Virus genome (UHGV): UHGV-1351569
Source of the DNA: a virus
Length of the DNA stretch: 64,000 nucleotides
Reading direction: 5' to 3' (one strand)
Part shown: positions 3,681 through 41,447 of the stretch, piece by piece
Numbering within the stretch: position 1 is the stretch's first letter
Layout: every line of letters starts with the position of its first letter
Translations under genes and position numbers: made by a program
Notes under the pieces: model-generated
Seen by the model: only the letters and a program-made list of their open reading frames with translations
What the model was told of the DNA's origin: nothing
The model's database searches: none

Positions 3681-4568
3681 ATGTCAGTAGTAATTAATAA
3701 TGTCAATGCAGTAATTAAATCTTTAGTTAATAAAAAATTGAATGAATGGACTGTACTTCGTCGTGGAGAGCCAGATAAATTTTTTCATAGATTTAACCCA
3801 ACTTTGGATTTGAATGTTATTGACAGAGATGTTCATGCTGAAATTTTAGATAAATTTAAAGTTGATATTGGGTTTGGATTAGATAAACATTTACAACGAA
3901 CAAACGGGTCTGGAATGGGTTTATCTAATCGCATCATGAAAGCCCTTAATAAAATTGGAGCGTTGTCTCGTATTAATGCGAGTGAAATCCTTCGTAATTA
4001 TAATAAAGGATATGACCTTTATGGTCGACTAATGCCAAAATTATCATTCGATCAAATGATTGCGGATTTGTGGGAAAATCAACGACGATTATTAGCATTG
4101 GGAGCTCGATTAGCTAAAGGTCTAGATAAACAAATGATTTTTAAGACCAATAATACAGAAGACCTTAAATGCTTTAAATTTAGTATTCGTGGCGATGATT
4201 ATTACATCAGAACTCGCTCCACAGATTATGTCAATATGGGCCATCATCTCTGTTTAGCTTTTGAAGTTTTAAAAGAAGCTGGAACATTAGAATATACGTC
4301 TGGTACTAAATGCCCGATTGGTTCAAATTGTATTTTGATTTATCGCCCGGATGAATCCAGTTCAACTAAATTGCCTACGAAACCTGTACCAGTTCGTAGT
4401 AATGAAAAACATTCTGAACAAATTGATTATTTTAATAAGCAAATTGAAGAGCTGAATATTTCTATTCAACAGTATGACGATGAAATTTTCAGACTATCTG
4501 GATTGAGTAGTAAAGCTAAATCTGAGCGTGAAAAGTTAATTAAAATTGTCGATTTACTTAAATCTTAA
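3681..4568 (+). CDS. Member 1 of a tandem array of proteins with a C-terminal coiled-coil tail (295 aa)
   Basis: ORF track 3666..4568; start moved to ATG 3681 behind TGAGGAAAAT; C-terminal heptad-like segment QIEELNISIQQYDDEIFRL...EREKLIKIVDLLKS. Confidence 0.65.
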   Translation: MSVVINNVNAVIKSLVNKKLNEWTVLRRGEPDKFFHRFNPTLDLNVIDRDVHAEILDKFKVDIGFGLDKHLQRTNGSGMGLSNRIMKALNKIGALSRINASEILRNYNKGYDLYGRLMPKLSFDQMIADLWENQRRLLALGARLAKGLDKQMIFKTNNTEDLKCFKFSIRGDDYYIRTRSTDYVNMGHHLCLAFEVLKEAGTLEYTSGTKCPIGSNCILIYRPDESSSTKLPTKPVPVRSNEKHSEQIDYFNKQIEELNISIQQYDDEIFRLSGLSSKAKSEREKLIKIVDLLKS

Positions 4569-4576
4569 GGAACACC

Positions 4577-5605
4577 ATGAAAACTCGTTCTCAAATTGAA
4601 GATATGGTTCGTAACGCCAGCTATACTCGTGATGTTATGACATTTTTGTGCCAAAATAATTTAGACCCTGATAAAGTTAATCGTGTTATTCATCACTTTA
4701 AGTATACGAATAGCAGTGAATGGGTGCGTAATTTTAGTAAAGCGGGGTATATTACACAAATGACTGCTCGTGAGCAGCTCACCGATTTCTGTAAAACTAT
4801 TGATTATAAAAATCCTCTATTTGTTCAAGGCGTTGGTCAAAGTAAGGTCGATTTATCAACAGGATTTTTTAATCCAAATCATTATCGTATTGAATGGAGA
4901 TTTATTGCTCTATTCCGTAAACAATTAAAGCAAATTTTGTCTACTGCTAGTCGATTAAAAGGTTCTGATATTAACTTAAAGAATCTGAAATTTGATGGTT
5001 ATACTCTTCAGATGGAAGTAAGACCATTAAAAGAAAATAACAGAACTGCACGAATTAGCTTTAAACCTAATACAAAAAATTCTCTTTCAATTTGCGAATG
5101 CCTTAAATCGCAGTTGACAGAAGCATTTAAGTATATGGATGTTGTTGCTGCTGTTCAGTCTAAGATTTCACAACATTTCGAACGATTTAAATTAGACACA
5201 ACAACATATGAACTTGATATGATCGTTTCATTTAAATATGAATTTTTGAGAAAGGACGAAGTTACACAAGAGAAAAAGCAAGAAGTGCAAGATAACTTAA
5301 ATTTAAATTTATCCAATTACTCATCAAACGATCCTAAATTTTGGATGTATAGTTCAGGTAATAAGGATGCATGGAAATTCAATAAAGTGAATTTTCTTCC
5401 TGTTGAAAATCCGAGTCTTAAACCTGTTGAAAAATGGCATGCAGATGCGATTGAGAAGTCTATCAAGGCAGTAGATGATGAACTCGTTAAAGCAACTAAT
5501 GAAGTGCTAGAAGCTGAAAAGATGCTAGAAAAAGCTCAAGAAAAAGTCAAAAATCTCACGAAGCAACGTTCTAAACTGAACAATGCACTAAATGCACTGA
5601 ACTAG
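4577..5605 (+). CDS. Member 2 of the coiled-coil-tailed array (342 aa)
   Basis: ORF track; C-terminal coiled-coil-like tail ...LEAEKMLEKAQEKVKNLTKQRSKLNNALNALN. Confidence 0.65.
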   Translation: MKTRSQIEDMVRNASYTRDVMTFLCQNNLDPDKVNRVIHHFKYTNSSEWVRNFSKAGYITQMTAREQLTDFCKTIDYKNPLFVQGVGQSKVDLSTGFFNPNHYRIEWRFIALFRKQLKQILSTASRLKGSDINLKNLKFDGYTLQMEVRPLKENNRTARISFKPNTKNSLSICECLKSQLTEAFKYMDVVAAVQSKISQHFERFKLDTTTYELDMIVSFKYEFLRKDEVTQEKKQEVQDNLNLNLSNYSSNDPKFWMYSSGNKDAWKFNKVNFLPVENPSLKPVEKWHADAIEKSIKAVDDELVKATNEVLEAEKMLEKAQEKVKNLTKQRSKLNNALNALN

Positions 5606-17788: not shown

Positions 17789-18991
17789 ATGAAAGTATGC
17801 ATTTTTATGGCTCGAGGTCTTGAAGGTTGCGGTGTAACTAAATTTTCTCTTGAGCAACGTGATTGGTTTATTAAAAACGGTCATGAAGTAACTTTAGTTT
17901 ATGCTAAAGATAAATCATTTACCCGTAATTGCGCGCATGATTATAAATCATTTTCAATTCCGGTTTTATTGGCAAAAGAATACGATAAAACACTTAAGCT
18001 GGTAAATGATTGTGATATTCTAATTATCAATTCAGTTCCTGCTACTTCAGTCGAAGAAGACACTATTAATAACTATAAAAAAATTATTGATAACATTAAA
18101 CCTTCGGTTCGTGTTGTAGTTTATCAACATGACCATTCTTCTCTTTCTTTGCGTCGAAATTTGGGATTAGAAGAAACTGTTCGCCGAGCTGATGTTATTT
18201 TTAGTCATTCTGATAATGGTGATTTTAATAAAGTTCTGATGAAAGAATGGTATCCAGAAACTGTTTCACTGTTTGATGATATTGAAGAAGCACCGACCGT
18301 ATACAACTTTCAGCCTCCTATGGATATTGCGAAGGTTCGATCAACCTACTGGAAAGATGTTTCTGAAATTAACATGAATATCAACCGTTGGATTGGTCGT
18401 ACGACTACATGGAAAGGTTTTTATCAGATGTTTGATTTTCACGAAAAACATCTTAAACCTGCAGGACTAAGTACTATTATGGAAGGTCTGGAACGTTCTC
18501 CAGCGTTCATTCCTATTAAAGAAAAAGGAATTCCATACGAGTATTATCGTCTTCATCAAGTAGACCAAATTAAAATTGCTCCTAATTTGCCAACGCAAAT
18601 TCTTGACCGTTATGTAAATAGCGAAATGCTTGAACGCATGAGTAAATCCGGATTTGGTTATCAGCTGAGTAAATTAGATAAAAAATATCTACAACGTTCT
18701 TTAGAATATACTCATCTCGAGCTTGGTGCATGTGGAACAATTCCAGTATTTTGGAAATCTACTGGCGAAAATTTAAAATTCCGTGTTGATAATACTCCGT
18801 TAATTTCTCATGATAGCGGTATCGTTTGGTTTGATGAAAATGACATGGAATCAACATTTGAGCGTATTAAAGAACTGTCATCTGACCGAGCTCTTTATGA
18901 CCGTGAACGCGAAAAAGCTTATGAATTTTTGTATCAGCATCAAGATTCAAGCTTCTGCTTTAAAGAACAGTTTGACATTATTACAAAATAA
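17789..18991 (+). CDS. agt: DNA alpha-glucosyltransferase, 400 aa
   Basis: Length and position (between 55 and 47) match T4 alpha-gt; GAGGA RBS. Confidence 0.85.
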   Translation: MKVCIFMARGLEGCGVTKFSLEQRDWFIKNGHEVTLVYAKDKSFTRNCAHDYKSFSIPVLLAKEYDKTLKLVNDCDILIINSVPATSVEEDTINNYKKIIDNIKPSVRVVVYQHDHSSLSLRRNLGLEETVRRADVIFSHSDNGDFNKVLMKEWYPETVSLFDDIEEAPTVYNFQPPMDIAKVRSTYWKDVSEINMNINRWIGRTTTWKGFYQMFDFHEKHLKPAGLSTIMEGLERSPAFIPIKEKGIPYEYYRLHQVDQIKIAPNLPTQILDRYVNSEMLERMSKSGFGYQLSKLDKKYLQRSLEYTHLELGACGTIPVFWKSTGENLKFRVDNTPLISHDSGIVWFDENDMESTFERIKELSSDRALYDREREKAYEFLYQHQDSSFCFKEQFDIITK

Positions 18992-28789: not shown

Positions 28790-28817
28790 ACAACTATCAA
28801 CTACGGAGGAACAGAAA

Positions 28818-29069
28818 ATGAAAAATATTCAAACTAATTTTATTCAAAATTTAAAAGTTGTTAACGCAGAAAAAGCGAATAAACTTTTTAAAGTTAAAGA
28901 ATTTGAAAATGAAGGTAACACTTACGGTATTATAGAACAAAATGGAATGGTGACTGGATTAGAAATTTATAATGGTAAAGGAAAATTTCAGTCACAGCCA
29001 ATTTCTGTTATGGGTGTAAGAAAAGGAATTAAAACTGAAGATGCTTTAAAGTTATTTGTTAAGTTTTAA
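28818..29069 (+). CDS. Hypothetical protein, 83 aa
   Basis: ORF track; GGAGG RBS. Confidence 0.6.
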   Translation: MKNIQTNFIQNLKVVNAEKANKLFKVKEFENEGNTYGIIEQNGMVTGLEIYNGKGKFQSQPISVMGVRKGIKTEDALKLFVKF

Positions 29070-29081
29070 GAGGAAATTATT

Positions 29082-29462
29082 ATGAAAATCGCTATTTTGG
29101 TTATTGCATTAGGTCTTACTGGTTGTGTAGCTCAAGGACCGGTAGTAAATCAGTCTGATGTAGGAAAAATTGTAAACTGTTCAAGCAAGTTTTATAATCC
29201 TAATGTCAAGTGTTATAAAGAAGCTCCAAAACAGACAGTAGAACAAATGCAGGCGAATTTTGACGAAGCTATTCGTCCAGATGAATCTGCTCAAGCATAT
29301 CGTAATTCGGATGTAATTACACGCGAAGAAAAAATTGAAAACTACTGCGCAGAACTTTGGGCAAATTGGGCTAATAATTACCAATGGCGTACTGGTAAAA
29401 ATGCTCCGATGGAGTATGTAGTGAATTCTTATAATTCATGTGTAAAAAATTTGACTAAGTGA
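29082..29462 (+). CDS. Putative lipoprotein, 126 aa (signal MKIAILVIALGLTGC)
   Basis: Lipobox-like LTGC after a hydrophobic signal peptide. Confidence 0.6.
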   Translation: MKIAILVIALGLTGCVAQGPVVNQSDVGKIVNCSSKFYNPNVKCYKEAPKQTVEQMQANFDEAIRPDESAQAYRNSDVITREEKIENYCAELWANWANNYQWRTGKNAPMEYVVNSYNSCVKNLTK

Positions 29463-29469
29463 GGAAAAC

Positions 29470-29721
29470 ATGGAAACTTTAGTAGCAGGTTCAATTTTTA
29501 TGGTTTTAGTTTCAGGTGTGTTGGCTATTATTATATACATGCTTCCATGGTTTATCGCCTTGATGCGTGGGTCAAAATCGACAGTAGGAATCTTTTTCAC
29601 ATCTTTACTGTTTAACTGGTCAATTATTGGTTGGTTTATTACATTTATTTGGTCAATTGCAGGTGAAACTAAAAAGTCTGCACAGCCAAATCAGGTAATT
29701 ATCATCAGAGAGAAGGAATGA
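29470..29721 (+). CDS. imm: Immunity to superinfection membrane protein Imm, 83 aa
   Basis: Two hydrophobic helices; length and position (between 43 and 42) as T4 Imm. Confidence 0.8.
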   Translation: METLVAGSIFMVLVSGVLAIIIYMLPWFIALMRGSKSTVGIFFTSLLFNWSIIGWFITFIWSIAGETKKSAQPNQVIIIREKE

Positions 29722-29867
29722 AAAGCAAAATTATAACAGTGTTGCTTTTAATCTTGATGATTATAATAAGTATATACTATAGTGTAACGGTTCCTCTTAT
29801 GATTCCAACTATTATTTTAGGTTGGGGTTTATTACTGTTACAAGTTAAATATGAATGTATCAATTGA
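29718..29867 (+). CDS. Hypothetical small membrane protein, 49 aa
   Basis: ATG overlapping the imm TGA; hydrophobic; below the ORF-track cutoff. Confidence 0.35.
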   Translation: MKSKIITVLLLILMIIISIYYSVTVPLMIPTIILGWGLLLLQVKYECIN

Positions 29868-29874
29868 GGTTTAA

Positions 29875-30615
29875 ATGATTAGTGACTCTATGACAGTTGA
29901 AGAAATCCGTCTTCATTTGGGACTTGCATTAAAAGAAAAAGATTTCGTAGTTGATAAAACTGGCGTTAAAACTATTGAAATTATTGGCGCATCATTTGTA
30001 GCAGATGAACCGTTTATTTTTGGCGCTCTTAATGATGAATACATTCAGCGTGAACTTGAATGGTATAAATCTAAAAGCTTGTTCGTTAAAGATATTCCAG
30101 GTGAAACACCGAAGATTTGGCAACAAGTAGCATCTTCTAAAGGTGAAATTAACTCGAATTATGGTTGGGCTATCTGGTCAGAAGATAACTATGCCCAGTA
30201 TGATATGTGTTTAGCTGAACTTGGTCAAAATCCTGATTCTCGACGTGGTATCATGATTTATACTCGTCCATCCATGCAATTTGACTACAATAAAGATGGC
30301 ATGTCAGATTTCATGTGTACTAATACAGTACAGTACCTGATTCGTGATAAGAAAGTCAATGCAGTAGTAAGCATGCGCTCAAATGATGTGGTCTTCGGAT
30401 TCCGTAATGATTATGCATGGCAAAAATACGTATTAGATAAATTAGTATCTGATTTGAATGCAGGCGATTCAACTCGTCAGTATAAAGCAGGTTCTATTAT
30501 ATGGAATGTTGGAAGTCTTCATGTATATTCTCGTCATTTTTACTTGGTTGATCATTGGTGGAATACTGGCGAAACTCATATTGTGAAAAAAGATTATAAC
30601 GGTGAGTGGAAATGA
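29875..30615 (+). CDS. 42: dCMP hydroxymethylase gp42, 246 aa
   Basis: Thymidylate-synthase-like fold sequence matching recalled T4 gp42. Confidence 0.9.
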   Translation: MISDSMTVEEIRLHLGLALKEKDFVVDKTGVKTIEIIGASFVADEPFIFGALNDEYIQRELEWYKSKSLFVKDIPGETPKIWQQVASSKGEINSNYGWAIWSEDNYAQYDMCLAELGQNPDSRRGIMIYTRPSMQFDYNKDGMSDFMCTNTVQYLIRDKKVNAVVSMRSNDVVFGFRNDYAWQKYVLDKLVSDLNAGDSTRQYKAGSIIWNVGSLHVYSRHFYLVDHWWNTGETHIVKKDYNGEWK

Positions 30616-31454
30616 TTCAATTCGTAATTCCAAGCTATCAACGCGTAGGGGCAGTTTCTGCCCTTGATATGTTTCCGACTGATTATGAACCTCATATTGT
30701 AGTACGTGAACACGAAGAAAAAGCTTATTATGACGCTTACGGGTCTAGGGCTAAAATTATAACTATTCCTGATGATGTAAACGGAATTGCCGGTACTCGT
30801 AAAGCAATTACTGATATGTATGCAGGTCAACGAATCTGGATGATTGACGATGATACTACTATTCGTATGAGTTCAATGCGAAAAAGAGATGATCGTCGTT
30901 GTGTAGATAAAGTCAATCAATTGACTCGTGAACAGTTCTATGAATTGATTCAATATGTTGAGGATGCCATGGATTGTGGGTATTATCATGGCCATGCTCG
31001 TCTACCTATTTTTAAAATTACTTCATCTTGGGGTAATTATCGTGAAAATTCATATGGATTCACGAATACATGGTATGACCTCGGAAAACTTACTACAGAA
31101 CAAATTGGGTATGGAAAAATTGATTTATGCGAAGATATGTATGCATTTCTCAATTTAATTAATCAAGGTTATCCGCATTTGGCCTTGTTCAAATATCTGG
31201 TTGTATCTGGAAAAGCACAAGCTCCTGGCGGGTGTAGTTCAATTCGTAGTAATTCTAAACATAATAGAGCGCTTGAGCAAATCAATAGAGAGTTTCCAGA
31301 GCAAGCTCGTTGGAAAACTTCTAATATTGAAAAACGAAAATCGTTGGGTGAAGAAGACGAGCCATTAAAGGTTCTTCGTATGTGTGTTTCGCGTAAAGAA
31401 AAATCAGAAGCATTTCATAAGTTTAATGCTATTCATCCAATAGCAGTTGATTAA
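30612..31454 (+). CDS. GT-A-fold glycosyltransferase (DxD motif) in the beta-gt slot; probably a T2/T6-type beta-alpha-glucosyltransferase
   Basis: VIPSYQR and WMIDDDTT (DxD) motifs typical of GT-A; unlike the recalled T4 beta-gt sequence (MKIAIINMGNN...); ATG overlaps the gene 42 TGA. Confidence 0.6.
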   Translation: MIQFVIPSYQRVGAVSALDMFPTDYEPHIVVREHEEKAYYDAYGSRAKIITIPDDVNGIAGTRKAITDMYAGQRIWMIDDDTTIRMSSMRKRDDRRCVDKVNQLTREQFYELIQYVEDAMDCGYYHGHARLPIFKITSSWGNYRENSYGFTNTWYDLGKLTTEQIGYGKIDLCEDMYAFLNLINQGYPHLALFKYLVVSGKAQAPGGCSSIRSNSKHNRALEQINREFPEQARWKTSNIEKRKSLGEEDEPLKVLRMCVSRKEKSEAFHKFNAIHPIAVD

Positions 31455-31479
31455 TGCCTAAATTTATTGTGTTATAATT
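31453..31479 (+). promoter_or_regulatory. Putative middle promoter upstream of uvsX (MotA-box-like ATGCCTAAA, TATAAT)
   Basis: Imperfect MotA box 12 bp upstream of an exact TATAAT. Confidence 0.3.
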
Positions 31480-31531
31480 ACCCTATCTTTAACCAGTGAG
31501 GAAAATATAATGATGCCTATGGAAAAAATGA

Positions 31532-32713
31532 ATGTCTATTGCAGATTTAAAATCCCGTTTGATTAAAGCTTCCACTTCTAAAATGACTGCTGAACTGACT
31601 ACATCTAAATTCTTTAATGAAAAGGATGTAATCCGTACAAAAATCCCAATGCTTAATATCGCTATTTCAGGTGCGATTGACGGTGGTATGCAGTCTGGTT
31701 TAACCATTTTTGCAGGTCCTTCTAAACACTTTAAATCAAATATGTCTTTGACTATGGTTGCGGCGTATTTGAACAAATATCCTGACGCGGTATGTCTATT
31801 CTATGATAGCGAATTTGGTATTACACCAGCTTATTTGCGATCCATGGGAGTTGACCCGGAACGAGTAATTCATACACCAATTCAGTCAGTTGAACAGCTG
31901 AAAATTGATATGGTGAATCAGCTTGAAGCTATTGAGCGTGGTGAAAAAGTTATTGTATTCATCGACTCAATCGGTAATATGGCTTCTAAGAAAGAAACGG
32001 AAGATGCCTTGAATGAAAAATCTGTGGCAGATATGACTCGTGCTAAATCACTGAAGTCATTATTCCGTATTGTTACTCCTTATTTTAGTATTAAAAACAT
32101 TCCATGTGTTGCGGTTAACCATACAATTGAAACAATTGAAATGTTTAGTAAAACCGTGATGACAGGTGGTACAGGCGTAATGTATTCGGCTGATACTGTA
32201 TTCATTATCGGTAAGCGCCAGATTAAAGATGGTTCTGATCTTCAGGGGTATCAATTTGTTCTAAATGTAGAAAAATCTCGTACCGTTAAAGAAAAAAGTA
32301 AATTCTTTATTGATGTTAAATTTGATGGTGGTATCGATCCTTATTCTGGATTGCTAGATATGGCTCTAGAATTAGGATTTGTAGTAAAACCTAAGAATGG
32401 TTGGTATGCTCGTGAATTTCTTGATGAAGAAACCGGCGAGATGATTCGCGAAGAAAAATCTTGGCGTGCAAAAGATACCAACTGCACTACATTCTGGGGT
32501 CCTTTATTTAAGCATCAACCATTCCGAGATGCTATTAAACGTGCTTATCAGTTAGGTGCTATTGATAGTAATGAAATTGTTGAAGCTGAAGTTGACGAAT
32601 TGATTAACTCAAAGGTTGAAAAATTTAAATCTCCAGAAAGTAAAAGTAAATCAGCAGCTGATTTAGAAACTGACCTAGAACAGTTAAGTGATATGGAAGA
32701 ATTTAATGAATAA
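31532..32713 (+). CDS. uvsX: Recombinase UvsX (RecA/Rad51 family), 393 aa
   Basis: ...DLKSRLIKASTSK...GPSKHFKSN... matches recalled T4 UvsX. Confidence 0.92.
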   Translation: MSIADLKSRLIKASTSKMTAELTTSKFFNEKDVIRTKIPMLNIAISGAIDGGMQSGLTIFAGPSKHFKSNMSLTMVAAYLNKYPDAVCLFYDSEFGITPAYLRSMGVDPERVIHTPIQSVEQLKIDMVNQLEAIERGEKVIVFIDSIGNMASKKETEDALNEKSVADMTRAKSLKSLFRIVTPYFSIKNIPCVAVNHTIETIEMFSKTVMTGGTGVMYSADTVFIIGKRQIKDGSDLQGYQFVLNVEKSRTVKEKSKFFIDVKFDGGIDPYSGLLDMALELGFVVKPKNGWYAREFLDEETGEMIREEKSWRAKDTNCTTFWGPLFKHQPFRDAIKRAYQLGAIDSNEIVEAEVDELINSKVEKFKSPESKSKSAADLETDLEQLSDMEEFNE

Positions 32714-35876: not shown

Positions 35877-36905
35877 ATGTCATCAATACCTTGGATTGAT
35901 AATGAGTTTGCATACCGTGCATTGGCTCATTTACCTAAATTCACACAAGTAAATAATAGTTCAACTTTTAAATTGCGGTTTAGATGCCCTGTTTGTGGAG
36001 ATTCAAAAACCGACCAAAATAAAGCTCGTGGATGGTATTACGGTGATAATAATGAAGGAAATATTCATTGTTATAACTGTAACTATCATGCACCAATCGG
36101 AATATATTTAAAGGAGTTTGAACCTGATTTATATCGTGAGTATATCTTTGAAATAAGAAAAGAAAAAGGTAAAAGTCGTCCAGTAGAAAAACCTAAAGAA
36201 CTTCCTAAGCGACCTGAGAAGAAAATAATTAAATCTCTTCCGTCATGTGTTAGATTAGATAAACTGGCGGAAGACCATCCAATTATAAAATATGTAAAAG
36301 CTCGTTGTATTCCAAAGGATAAATGGAAATATCTTTGGTTTACAACCGAATGGCCTAAATTAGTTAATAGTATAGCACCGGGAACATACAAAAAGGAAAT
36401 ACCTGAGCCTCGTCTTGTTATTCCAATTTATAATGCTAATGGAAAAGCTGAGTCTTTTCAAGGCCGTGCGTTAAAGAAAGATGCTCCTCAAAAATATATC
36501 ACCATCAAAGCTTATCCTGAGGCAACAAAAATCTATGGAGTCGAACGAGTCAAAGATGGTGATGTATATGTTCTAGAAGGACCTATAGATTCACTTTTTA
36601 TTGAAAATGGTATAGCTATTACAGGTGGTCAATTAGACCTAGAAATTGTTCCATTTAAAGATAGACGTGTATGGGTTTTAGATAATGAACCTCGTCATCC
36701 TGACACTATTAAACGAATGACTAAATTAGTTGATGCAGGAGAAAGGGTTATGTTTTGGGATAAATCTCCCTGGAAATCAAAAGATGTTAATGATATGATT
36801 AGAAAGGAAGGTGCAACCCCTGAACAAATTATGGAATATATGAAAAATAATATTGCCCAGGGGTTAATGGCTAAAATGCGGCTATCTAAATATGCCAAGA
36901 TTTAA
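35877..36905 (+). CDS. 61: DNA primase gp61, 342 aa
   Basis: N-terminal zinc ribbon CPVCGDS...CYNC and TOPRIM-like core; length as T4 gp61. Confidence 0.9.
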   Translation: MSSIPWIDNEFAYRALAHLPKFTQVNNSSTFKLRFRCPVCGDSKTDQNKARGWYYGDNNEGNIHCYNCNYHAPIGIYLKEFEPDLYREYIFEIRKEKGKSRPVEKPKELPKRPEKKIIKSLPSCVRLDKLAEDHPIIKYVKARCIPKDKWKYLWFTTEWPKLVNSIAPGTYKKEIPEPRLVIPIYNANGKAESFQGRALKKDAPQKYITIKAYPEATKIYGVERVKDGDVYVLEGPIDSLFIENGIAITGGQLDLEIVPFKDRRVWVLDNEPRHPDTIKRMTKLVDAGERVMFWDKSPWKSKDVNDMIRKEGATPEQIMEYMKNNIAQGLMAKMRLSKYAKI

Positions 36906-37102
36906 ATTAACCCAACCAAAGCAAATGCTAAATCTACGAATGTATCAAGAGTAACTACTGGAATATTAATACCATGCGCAATAGCTACTGGCGATAAAAC
37001 AAAATTCCAAAGTAAAATTCCTATCATAGCAGAAATAGTAAAAGCTATACGTTTTTTATTACCTTTGATGGCATTAACAAGTGCCATTAATTTTTGTACC
37101 AT
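36902..37102 (-). CDS. Antisense-oriented small hydrophobic protein, 66 aa
   Basis: Complement-strand ORF with a near-perfect SD (AAGGAGG) 4 nt upstream of the ATG; predicted membrane helices; sits in the 61-56 intergenic gap. Confidence 0.5.
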   Translation of the reverse strand: MVQKLMALVNAIKGNKKRIAFTISAMIGILLWNFVLSPVAIAHGINIPVVTLDTFVDLAFALVGLI

Positions 37103-37115
37103 ATGTCCTCCTTAT

Positions 37116-37139
37116 TGCTTTATATATTTATTGTATAAT
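37116..37139 (+). promoter_or_regulatory. Putative middle promoter for gene 56 (MotA box TGCTTTA, 11 bp, TATAAT)
   Basis: Consensus MotA box and exact -10. Confidence 0.5.
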
Positions 37140-37173
37140 TAATCTACTAACCCATGAATTGAAAGGAAAAATA

Positions 37174-37692
37174 ATGGCTTACTTTAACGAATGTTCACAA
37201 CTGATTGAAGGCGCTGATAAAGCTCAAAATGAATATTGGGATATTCTCGGCGATGAAAAAGACCCACTACAGGTTATGCTTGATATGCAGAAATCTCTGC
37301 AGGTTCGTTTAGCTAAAGATAAACCTGAATATAACCGTCATCCTGATGATTTGGCTACCGCAGGTGAAGTTGTTGATTGGCTGCGCAATCAGAAAGATTA
37401 TATTGACGATGAATTCCGTGAACTTCTGACTTCTCTTGGTGGTATGAGTAATGGTGAAAAAGACGCATCTGCTGTATGGAAACCTTGGAAGTCGCAGCAT
37501 GGTGAACGTCGTGAAACTCTGATTACTGATTTGTCTCCGCAAGACCAGTTAGAAATTAAATTTGAAATGATTGATATTCTTCATTTCGTTCTGAACATGT
37601 TCCAAGGTCTCGGTCTTACGGCTGAAGAAATCTTTAAACTTTATTATCTAAAAAATGCTGAAAACTTCGCTCGTCAAGACAGAGGTTATTAA
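37174..37692 (+). CDS. 56: dCTPase/dCDPase gp56, 172 aa
   Basis: MAYFNECSQLIEGADKAQNEYWDILGDEKDPLQVMLDMQ... matches recalled T4 gp56; the ORF track extends upstream but the RBS supports ATG 37174. Confidence 0.9.
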   Translation: MAYFNECSQLIEGADKAQNEYWDILGDEKDPLQVMLDMQKSLQVRLAKDKPEYNRHPDDLATAGEVVDWLRNQKDYIDDEFRELLTSLGGMSNGEKDASAVWKPWKSQHGERRETLITDLSPQDQLEIKFEMIDILHFVLNMFQGLGLTAEEIFKLYYLKNAENFARQDRGY

Positions 37693-38329: not shown

Positions 38330-38670
38330 TGTTTATCTTTAATTGGTTTAAAAGTTTCTTTACGGATTTTTTCTCTACAGCTCCTGGAGAAGGTGTAGTT
38401 CCTATTTCAAACGACTACCTTCCTTTAACTGTAGTTGAATATGTTTATATGGGAGATGGAACAGTAGAAGCAGTTACTATGACTTATGAAGAAGCCCAGG
38501 AATATTATAAAAATCCTTGGCGCTGGTCAACACCTACTACATCATCTAATGCACAGAATACACAGTCTAGTTCTGATTCATATGACACTAATGTTCCTGT
38601 TCATGTATGGACGGGCGATTCGTGTGGAAGTTCTTGTGATTCTAGTTGTTCATCTACATCTTGCGATTGA
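38329..38670 (+). CDS. Hypothetical protein with Ser/Cys-rich C-terminus ([17 protein letters not shown]), 113 aa
   Basis: ORF track; low-complexity Cys/Ser tail. Confidence 0.5.
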
Positions 38671-38678
38671 GGAAAATT

Positions 38679-39164
38679 ATGGAAGCGATTTTGTTTGAAA
38701 TGTATATTAGCAGTAATAGTATGTCGTTTGCTAAAGATGTTCCAATTACAGTAGCAGTAATGATTGATAAGGGTTATTGTGACCCAATGTATCTCGTAGA
38801 AAATTTCGTTTCAATGCCAGTTCCAGAAGATGCTGAAATAAAACTTAAAAAGATTGGTATCATTGAAACTGTACCAAATATTCCGTTTAGAGCAATTGAA
38901 GCATTTACTAAATCCGAATACATTAATGTTAGCGCAGAACAATATAATGATAAGCCTTTATCTTTTTATTCGTACGATTCACTATATAGTTGGAAAATAG
39001 ATAAAGGAAATAAATTTATAATTGCAAGTGAAGATGCTTTATCATACTTTATTTCTTCTGTATGGAATAGTTTACATCCAAATTTGCTAAAAATTCATGA
39101 ATTTGATGATGCTCCTACTGTTGTTTTAGGTAAAACAAATGAAAGTTCTGAAGAAAATGTTTGA
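38679..39164 (+). CDS. Hypothetical protein (about 161 aa)
   Basis: ORF track 38646..39164; ATG 38679 behind GAGGAAAATT. Confidence 0.55.
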
Positions 39165-39342: not shown

Positions 39343-39503
39343 ACAAAGATATGACGTTAGAAGAGGCAAAGGCTAAAGCAAATGAAGCATTGGATTTGCT
39401 TCTTAAAATCGGTAGTAAAATGATGGAAGAAAATGAGAAATACATTCAGGAAAACAAAATTCCTGACGGTCCATTAGTAGGCAAAAGGAAATCACATGAT
39501 TGA
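39339..39503 (+). CDS. Hypothetical small protein, 54 aa
   Basis: ATGA overlap with the upstream stop; open to TGA; below the ORF-track cutoff. Confidence 0.35.
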
Positions 39504-39966
39504 AGTAGCAAAACATTATTCAATAGAATTTATGTCCAAAGAAGGTAAATCAGTAAATACACTTGATAAAAAATGCTCATTAATTATTCCTTTAGCAGAA
39601 AATCCGGATTTTTTAATTAAAGATATAAAAGAAAGAAAATATCCAGAAAATGTTATTCTAATTATAAAGCATACTGAAGATATTTTGCAGAATACAGATT
39701 CACCATTTTCTTCTTCTGAAGCTTTAACTATTAAAGGCTATAAAAGAGCTCACGAATATGGTCTTTTTGACATGTTTGAAGACGATAAAGTTAAATTAGC
39801 GAGTCAACCTTCTAAAAGTAAAACATTCATTATTGAAGATATTAAAGATATAAATGCATTTGTTAGGATGGTCTGGGCTCATTTTGATGTTGGACTACGC
39901 TGGAGAATGTCCGAAGAAGAAAGAAAGATTATTGAAGCTAATCGTCACTTTGGTTTTTATCGCTAG
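39496..39966 (+). CDS. Hypothetical protein, 156 aa
   Basis: ORF track. Confidence 0.55.
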
Positions 39967-40224: not shown

Positions 40225-40848
40225 ATGATTATTAATCCTGCAGATGTTGAACAGTTATCTATAAAAGCTGAAAGCGTTGATTTTCAATATGATATGTATA
40301 AAAAAGTCTGTGAAAAATTTACTGACTTTGAGCAGTCTGTTCTTTGGCAATGTATGGAAGCCAAAAAGAATGAAGCTCTCCATCGGCAGTTGAATAAAAT
40401 CGTTAAAAAGCATTTAACTAAATCACCTTATCAGCTATATCGTGGTATATCAAAATCGACAAAAGAACTCATTAAAGATTTACAAGTTGGAGAAGTGTTT
40501 TCAACGAACAGAGTAGATTCATTTACTACTAGTTTGCATACAGCGTGTTCTTTTTCTTATGCTGAATATTTCACTGAAATAGTACTTCGCTTAAAAACTG
40601 ATAAAGCTTTTAATTACTCTGACCATATCAGCGATATTATACTTTCTTCTCCTAATACTGAGTTTAAGTATACATATGAAGATACTGATGGATTAGATTC
40701 AGAGCGTACTGATAACTTAATGATGATTGTACGTGAACAAGAATGGATGATTCCAATTGGAAAGTATAAAATAACTTCTATTTCAAAAGAAAAATTACAC
40801 GATTCATTTGGAACATTTAAAGTGTATGATATTGAGGTAGTTGAATGA
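40225..40848 (+). CDS. modB: ADP-ribosyltransferase ModB-like, 207 aa
   Basis: ART motifs (LYRG arginine, STS-like FSTNRVDSFTTS, EQEWMIP catalytic Glu); length as T4 ModB. Confidence 0.7.
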   Translation: MIINPADVEQLSIKAESVDFQYDMYKKVCEKFTDFEQSVLWQCMEAKKNEALHRQLNKIVKKHLTKSPYQLYRGISKSTKELIKDLQVGEVFSTNRVDSFTTSLHTACSFSYAEYFTEIVLRLKTDKAFNYSDHISDIILSSPNTEFKYTYEDTDGLDSERTDNLMMIVREQEWMIPIGKYKITSISKEKLHDSFGTFKVYDIEVVE

Positions 40849-41447
40849 AATATTCAGCAATGCAATTAAAAGATTTTAAAATCAAATCAATGGATGCATC
40901 GGTGCGTGCTTCTATTCGTGAAGAATTACTTTCTGAAGGATTTAATTTATCTGAAATTGAACTTTTAATTCATTGTATTACTAATAAGCCAGACGACCAC
41001 TCTTGGTTAAATGAAATAATCAAATCTCGTTTGGTTCCAAACGATAAACCTCTTTGGAGAGGTGTTCCAGTTGAGACTAAGCAGGTGTTAAATCAAGGAA
41101 TTGATATTATTACATTTGATAAAGTAGTATCAGCTTCATATGATAAAAATATAGCTCTACATTTTGCTTCTGGTTTAGAGTATAACACACAAGTTATTTT
41201 TGAATTCAAAGCTCCTATGGTATTTAATTTCCAGGAGTATGCTATAAAAGCTCTACGTTGTAAAGAATATAGTCCGAGTTTTAAGTTTCCGGATAGCCAT
41301 CGCTATCGTAATATGGAATTAGTTTCAGATGAACAAGAAGTAATGATACCAGCTGGAAGTGTATTTAGAATTGCAGATAGATATGAGTATAAAAAGTATT
41401 CAACATACACTATCTATACTCTTGATTTTGAAGGATTTAATCTATAA
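40845..41447 (+). CDS. modA: ADP-ribosyltransferase ModA-like, 200 aa
   Basis: Paralog of the previous gene (LWRG, EQEVMIP); length as T4 ModA. Confidence 0.7.
   Translation: MKYSAMQLKDFKIKSMDASVRASIREELLSEGFNLSEIELLIHCITNKPDDHSWLNEIIKSRLVPNDKPLWRGVPVETKQVLNQGIDIITFDKVVSASYDKNIALHFASGLEYNTQVIFEFKAPMVFNFQEYAIKALRCKEYSPSFKFPDSHRYRNMELVSDEQEVMIPAGSVFRIADRYEYKKYSTYTIYTLDFEGFNL

Follow-up and report, generated by a model that had tools for sequence, protein, structure and literature searches.

The gene at positions 30612–31454 (+ strand) of the window, the 64-kb stretch of phage DNA analysed here, very probably encodes the Tequatrovirus beta-alpha-glucosyltransferase (ggt or ba-gt, a TAGT-family enzyme with EC 2.4.1.28-type activity), which makes gentiobiosyl-hmC; we put the probability of this reading at about 93%. 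It is based on orthology, synteny, fold, motif conservation and the accompanying pathway genes, with the activity taken from the literature. The predicted reaction of the window enzyme is the conversion of UDP-glucose and alpha-glucosyl-hmC DNA to beta-1,6-glucosyl-alpha-glucosyl-hmC DNA.

The reading frame is intact and runs from ATG at 30612 to TAA at 31452–31454, which bears out the 280-aa ORF between genes 42 and uvsX described in the first-pass annotation. A mechanical ORF list places the start further upstream, at GTG 30606 (282 aa); ATG 30612 is the annotated ggt start in T2, Solly, REP1 and BGP. This ATG shares an ATGA overlap with the TGA stop of gene 42. Both neighbours named in that annotation are confirmed by Pfam: gene 42 (dCMP hydroxymethylase; 29875–30615, +) matches Thymidylat_synt and is further identified by synteny and by the annotation of T2, T4 and T6, and the downstream recombinase gene uvsX (31532–32713, +) matches T4_UVSX_C and RecA. 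The local order is 43, an 83-aa ORF, imm.1, imm, a 49-aa ORF, 42, ggt, uvsX, 40 and 41, and the synteny 43/imm.1/imm/42/ggt/uvsX/40/41 is the same in T2 and T6. A sigma-70 promoter scan of 29400–31700 returned 14 sites against 10.7 ± 3.2 expected, which is chance level; no ggt promoter is therefore claimed, and coupling to gene 42 is the simpler account of ggt expression. Within codons 12–19 of ggt lies a GC-rich hairpin, GGGGCAG ttt CTGCCC (30646–30666, +), which stands out in so AT-rich a genome and is unchanged in T2 and T6; as a terminator-like match it is at chance level (1 versus 0.7 expected).

Two small ORFs upstream deserve mention in their own right. The 83-aa ORF (28818–29069, +), between 43 and imm.1, matches PHROG 18567 (unknown function; E=7e-52) and sits in a 274-bp stretch (28808–29081) that has no T4 counterpart and is present in T2 as 'RB51ORF048'. 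The strongly hydrophobic 49-aa ORF (29718–29867, +) fills the gap between imm and 42, overlaps the imm stop and matches PHROG 3610 (E=5e-26). BGP has an annotated copy; the T2, T4 and T6 records examined do not, although T4 conserves the underlying DNA.

Over residues 1–275, the ggt product matches PHROG 842, 'beta-glucosyl-HMC-alpha-glucosyltransferase' (E=6.4e-89). Its only Pfam match is to TAGT (PF20691; 38.9 bits against a gathering cutoff of 27.5, E=1e-9), which covers profile positions 2–205 of 205 and ggt residues 3–207; none of ggt, alpha-gt and gp56 is represented by an NCBIfam model. Megablast found ggt in 475 phage records, each covering at least 80% of the gene, almost all of them Tequatrovirus of Escherichia, Shigella, Yersinia and Salmonella. 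The best DNA matches are 98.1–98.5% identical, and all T2 records are among them (T2 ggt, 98.3%).

The comparison with the T2 and T6 enzymes that the first-pass annotation had called for reveals full-length orthology to both. T2 ggt (AYD82639.1) is identical at 278/280 residues, differing by R11H and P251S (H11 and S251 in T2), and lies in the same gene order, likewise overlapping gene 42 at an ATGA. The T6 ba-gt, or TAGT (YP_010067197.1; AXN58083.1), occupies the same slot and is ~99% identical where comparable; four positions differ, Y40N, D55G and R106H among them. Closest of all is the glucosyl transferase of vB_Eco_Solly (CAJ1578263.1; OY720021.1), which lies in the same slot between 42 and uvsX and is identical at 280/280 residues. 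Together with PHROG 842, the T2 and Solly matches support the proposal of a T2/T6-style enzyme for the second glucose. The Solly and window ggt genes are just 98.1% identical as DNA, so Solly is a different phage isolate. The window phage as T2, T6 or Solly itself was likewise rejected, as its ggt DNA is 98.1–98.5% identical to the best records; over its first 25 kb, the window does not exceed ~97% identity to any record listed.

A different specificity, such as direct glycosylation of bare hmC, use of another nucleotide sugar or formation of another linkage, is worth weighing because the TAGT family is broad and mostly uncharacterised, and many of its members either neighbour TET/JBP-like oxygenases or occur in phages on their own (PMC13216743). 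A solitary TAGT homologue is carried by 288 of 753 GT-encoding phage genomes (PMC13216743); such solitary genes, in phages with neither alpha-gt nor beta-gt, imply that other substrates exist within the family, and the modest Pfam score of the window protein (E=1e-9) likewise points to a diverse family. However, the T2, T6 and Solly enzymes have known products and are 99–100% identical to the window protein, a level at which no change of specificity is expected, and we regard this alternative as highly improbable beside a gentiobiosyl-forming ggt.

The homologue collection was built in two steps: a single-sequence search gave 11 proteins, too shallow a set for structure prediction, and a profile search was therefore used, which gave 51, of which 46 were aligned. 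These 46 TAGT homologues reach down to about 13–25% identity. I6, R11, R63, D79, D80 and D81 are invariant in all of them. Both motifs reported from the first reading of the sequence were recovered. VIPSYQR, the N-terminal strand motif, spans residues 5–11 (30624–30644, +), with I6 and R11 conserved in 46/46 sequences, P7 in 44/46 and Y9 in 42/46. WMIDDDTT spans residues 76–83 (nt 30837–30860) and contains the DDD (D79–D81; 30846–30854, +; codons GAC GAT GAT), a DxD-type nucleotide-sugar/metal-binding motif at the end of strand 74–78 that is invariant in 46/46. The motifs are not chance features, as I6, R11, R63 and D79-D80-D81 are invariant in the 46 homologues.

A sequence search of the PDB found no related chain, the best hit (E ~1.6–2) being an unrelated PNPOx-like protein, and the fold was therefore examined on a predicted model. 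The AlphaFold model built from the 46-homologue alignment has a mean pLDDT of 93.2 and a pTM of 0.91, with a core of alternating beta strands and alpha helices. Residues 3–7 form the first beta strand, and strand 74–78 precedes the DDD. According to the model and the alignment, the DDD thus follows a core beta strand, as in GT-A enzymes. The predicted fold is a single Rossmann-like alpha/beta/alpha nucleotide-binding domain, like that of solved GT-A structures, and together with the invariant DDD it agrees with the GT-A assignment made at first reading; a GT-A fold of TAGT has been described independently (PMC13216743). From GT-A enzymology, we infer that the DDD would have a catalytic role. 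Analogy with GT2 enzymes likewise suggests a DxD/metal mechanism and inverting chemistry; no structure of a family member has been solved.

In T4, the slot between 42 and uvsX holds a different gene. In a blastn comparison with T4, ~97% identity extends to 30597, 18 nt short of the gene 42 terminus; it restarts at 31544, just within uvsX. The intervening 30598–31543 is an exchangeable cassette without T4 DNA homology, and 946 bp with ggt here stand against 1941 bp with beta-gt and segA in T4, a clean cassette difference. The ggt protein has no BLASTP similarity to T4 beta-gt (best E=2.2), in keeping with the lack of resemblance originally noted, and a tblastn search with T4 beta-gt, which covered the 64-kb window of the genome, found no homologue (best E=1.4). 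A T4-type beta-gt identity (GT63, PF09198, GT-B) for ggt was rejected on the BLASTP and tblastn results and on TAGT being the sole Pfam match. The description of ggt as occupying the beta-gt slot holds for position, given the breakpoints at 30597 and 31544; the frequencies that it implies do not hold, ggt being the usual occupant. T4-type beta-gt DNA occurs in 29 phage records, mostly T4 itself or T4-like laboratory phages, and alpha-gt is matched in 504. The combination of alpha-gt with TAGT is the common Tequatrovirus state, and the alpha-gt with beta-gt of T4 is a rarity (475 records with ggt in this slot versus 29 with T4-type beta-gt DNA).

The homing-endonuclease gene segA, present in T4 (extract numbering 1571–2236), is absent between ggt and uvsX (31455–31531). 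As beta-gt and segA together make up the T4 cassette, the homing endonuclease may have spread or maintained the T4 version. By eye, the same intergenic region contains an extended -10, TGTTATAAT (31470–31478, +), and a MotA-box-like TGCCTAA (31455–31461, +) correctly spaced upstream of it. The stretch 31455–31478 resembles a T4-type middle promoter that would serve uvsX; lacking a -35 hexamer, it was passed over by the generic sigma-70 scan.

Database names for these glucosyltransferase and gene 42 entries are unreliable. In RB55 and RB59 (KM607002/KM607003), the T4-type beta-gt is mislabelled 'beta-glucosyl-HMC-alpha-glucosyl-transferase'; the T2 record LC348380 gives ggt the gene name 'b-gt'; and several RefSeq records name gene 42 (dCMP hydroxymethylase) 'thymidylate synthase'.

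The genes that would supply the acceptor are also present in the window. The DNA alpha-glucosyltransferase gene alpha-gt (GT-B; 17789–18991, +) is where it had been placed and matches Pfam AGT (PF11440) with E=2.4e-236. A gp56-like dCTPase/dUTPase gene (37081–37692, +, with a putative start) matches PHROG 173, nucleoside triphosphate pyrophosphohydrolase (E=3e-46), and directly follows the gene-61 primase, as in T4. Hence alpha-gt and the hmC pathway, represented by gene 42 and the gp56-like gene, co-occur with ggt. In the proposed scheme, gp56 would keep dCTP out of phage DNA and gp42 would supply hmdCMP, so that the DNA is built with 5-hydroxymethylcytosine. Alpha-gt would then glucosylate, in alpha linkage, some two-thirds to three-quarters of the hmC. 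The ggt enzyme would bind UDP-glucose through the invariant DDD and a divalent cation and add a second glucose onto the first in beta-1,6 linkage, with inversion of configuration, to yield gentiobiosyl-hmC. The second sugar would conceal alpha-glucosyl-hmC from defences that read the monoglucosyl base (Brig1 glycosylase, BapA glucosidase).

Several other features of this region were observed. The gap between primase 61 and gp56 (36905–37081) is too small for a dam gene. Further along, ORFs of 172 aa (38646–39164, +; E=9e-62) and 156 aa (39496–39966, +; E=4e-53) each match PHROG 1234, the Mrh transcription-modulator family, and downstream of this pair are two ADP-ribosyltransferase paralogues (40225–41447, ModA/ModB-like), Srd and Dda.

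The product of the T2/T6 enzyme is established: it adds glucose onto alpha-glucosylated hmC to form gentiobiosyl (beta-1,6-glucosyl-alpha-glucosyl) hmC, which accounts for 5% of T2 cytosines and 72% of those of T6 (PMC6024577; PMC13216743; PMC11078745). Deletion of ggt from T6 leaves DNA with alpha-glucosyl-hmC only (PMC11078745; bioRxiv 10.64898/2026.02.25.707755). [quoted passage not shown] Because the window phage shares its ggt protein exactly with Solly and its alpha-gt at 398/400 residues (99.5%), its DNA is predicted to be T6/Solly-like, with ~1/3 bare hmC, ~2/3 gentiobiosyl-hmC and little monoglucosyl-hmC.

Sequence identity alone does not set the level of diglucosylation, since the T2 gene, 99% identical, yields ~5% gentiobiosyl-hmC, and EL, BGP and Geo, whose protein is 97.5% identical (seven substitutions in the BGP enzyme), reach just ~40%. 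On these grounds, the window enzyme could be of the T2/T6 type and still work at a low, T2-like level, leaving mostly alpha-monoglucosyl-hmC and a few percent gentiobiosyl-hmC. We consider this unlikely, as the protein is identical to that of the high-gentiobiosyl Solly, the alpha-gt differs at only 2/400 residues and the T2-private R11H at an invariant arginine is missing from the window protein. The T6/Solly-like composition is the prediction that we retain.

Codon 11 is CGC (Arg; 30642–30644) in the window and CAT (His; extract numbering 4031–4033) in T2, where histidine replaces the arginine that is invariant in 46/46 TAGT homologues. A tblastn search with the N-terminal 30-mer of T2 found the exact peptide in only 8 of 682 matching records (seven T2 and SV76). 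It is possible, if rather doubtful, that the level of diglucosylation can be read from the ggt allele, with R11H causing the ~5% of T2 and R11 alleles giving 40–72%. If so, the window phage would be of the 'high' type, and the 60-year-old difference between T2 and T6 would receive a one-residue explanation.

Both public T6 genome records, which are independent of each other, bear a lesion at a family-invariant ggt site, and the window gene is intact at both. In MH550421 (extract numbering 4924–4980, minus strand), Q10 is changed to a TAG amber codon (window 30639–30641); because of this stop at codon 10, the CDS is annotated from Met20 (261 aa) and the first strand is lost. In AP018814/NC_054907 (YP_010067197.1; extract numbering 201–1040), (GAT)3 is shortened in frame to (GAT)2, which leaves DD for the invariant DDD in a protein of 279 aa. 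YP_010067197.1 is the reference 'T6 TAGT' used in PMC13216743. Such lesions are odd for the classic heavily diglucosylated phage and may reflect stock-specific loss or tolerated variation. They indicate that laboratory stocks can tolerate damage to ggt, and the window ORF might by extension be an inactive remnant that is poorly or not expressed. We give this very little credence, as the ORF is full-length with all family-invariant residues intact and is coupled to gene 42 by the ATGA, as in T2, Solly, REP1 and BGP.

The second glucose alters modification-dependent defence, as had been anticipated. In vitro, Brig1 glycosylase can degrade T6 delta-ba-gt DNA, and loss of the gene also raises the sensitivity of the phage to Brig1 (PMC11078745); the mutant DNA is also a substrate of the BapA glucosidase, whereas gentiobiosyl-hmC is not (bioRxiv 10.64898/2026.02.25.707755). 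GmrSD is reported to target both monoglucosyl isomers and the gentiobiosyl base (PMC13216743); GmrSD-type enzymes still act on the final product. The same claim extended to CRISPR nucleases is an extrapolation: the literature documents an effect of the second glucose for glycosylases, a glucosidase and type IV enzymes, with no evidence found for a specific effect on CRISPR sensitivity. The predicted DNA of the window phage, with gentiobiosyl-hmC, bare hmC and no beta-glucosyl-hmC, bears on the defences able to strike it. The unglucosylated third would be open to McrBC-type enzymes and the glucosylated DNA to GmrSD/BrxU-type enzymes; Brig1 would be confined to the interval preceding addition of the second glucose, and BapA/Brig3 would be blocked by gentiobiose. 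The composition would also matter for the handling of this DNA with restriction enzymes in the laboratory. The gene, its position and role, its GT-A fold and these defence consequences are already known from papers published from 2018 to 2026; the result is mainly the correct annotation of the standard second glucosyltransferase of Tequatrovirus, and it opens no new question.

Compared with known glycosyltransferases, ggt shares the motifs of the PF20691 TAGT (TET-associated glycosyltransferase) family, and the T-even subgroup has an additional C-terminal ~70 residues (208–280) beyond the family profile. GT2-type GT-A enzymes (WrtF 9omh, AvpGT 9jma, TarS 5tze and SpsA 1h7l) are just 8–16% identical to it and act on lipid, glycan or protein, whereas the acceptor of ggt is a sugar on duplex DNA. 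T4 beta-gt (NP_049658.1) resembles ggt in lying between 42 and uvsX and in using UDP-glucose to attach glucose to phage DNA through a beta-glucosidic bond. In contrast to ggt, it has a GT-B fold, and its acceptor is bare hmC rather than alpha-glucosyl-hmC.
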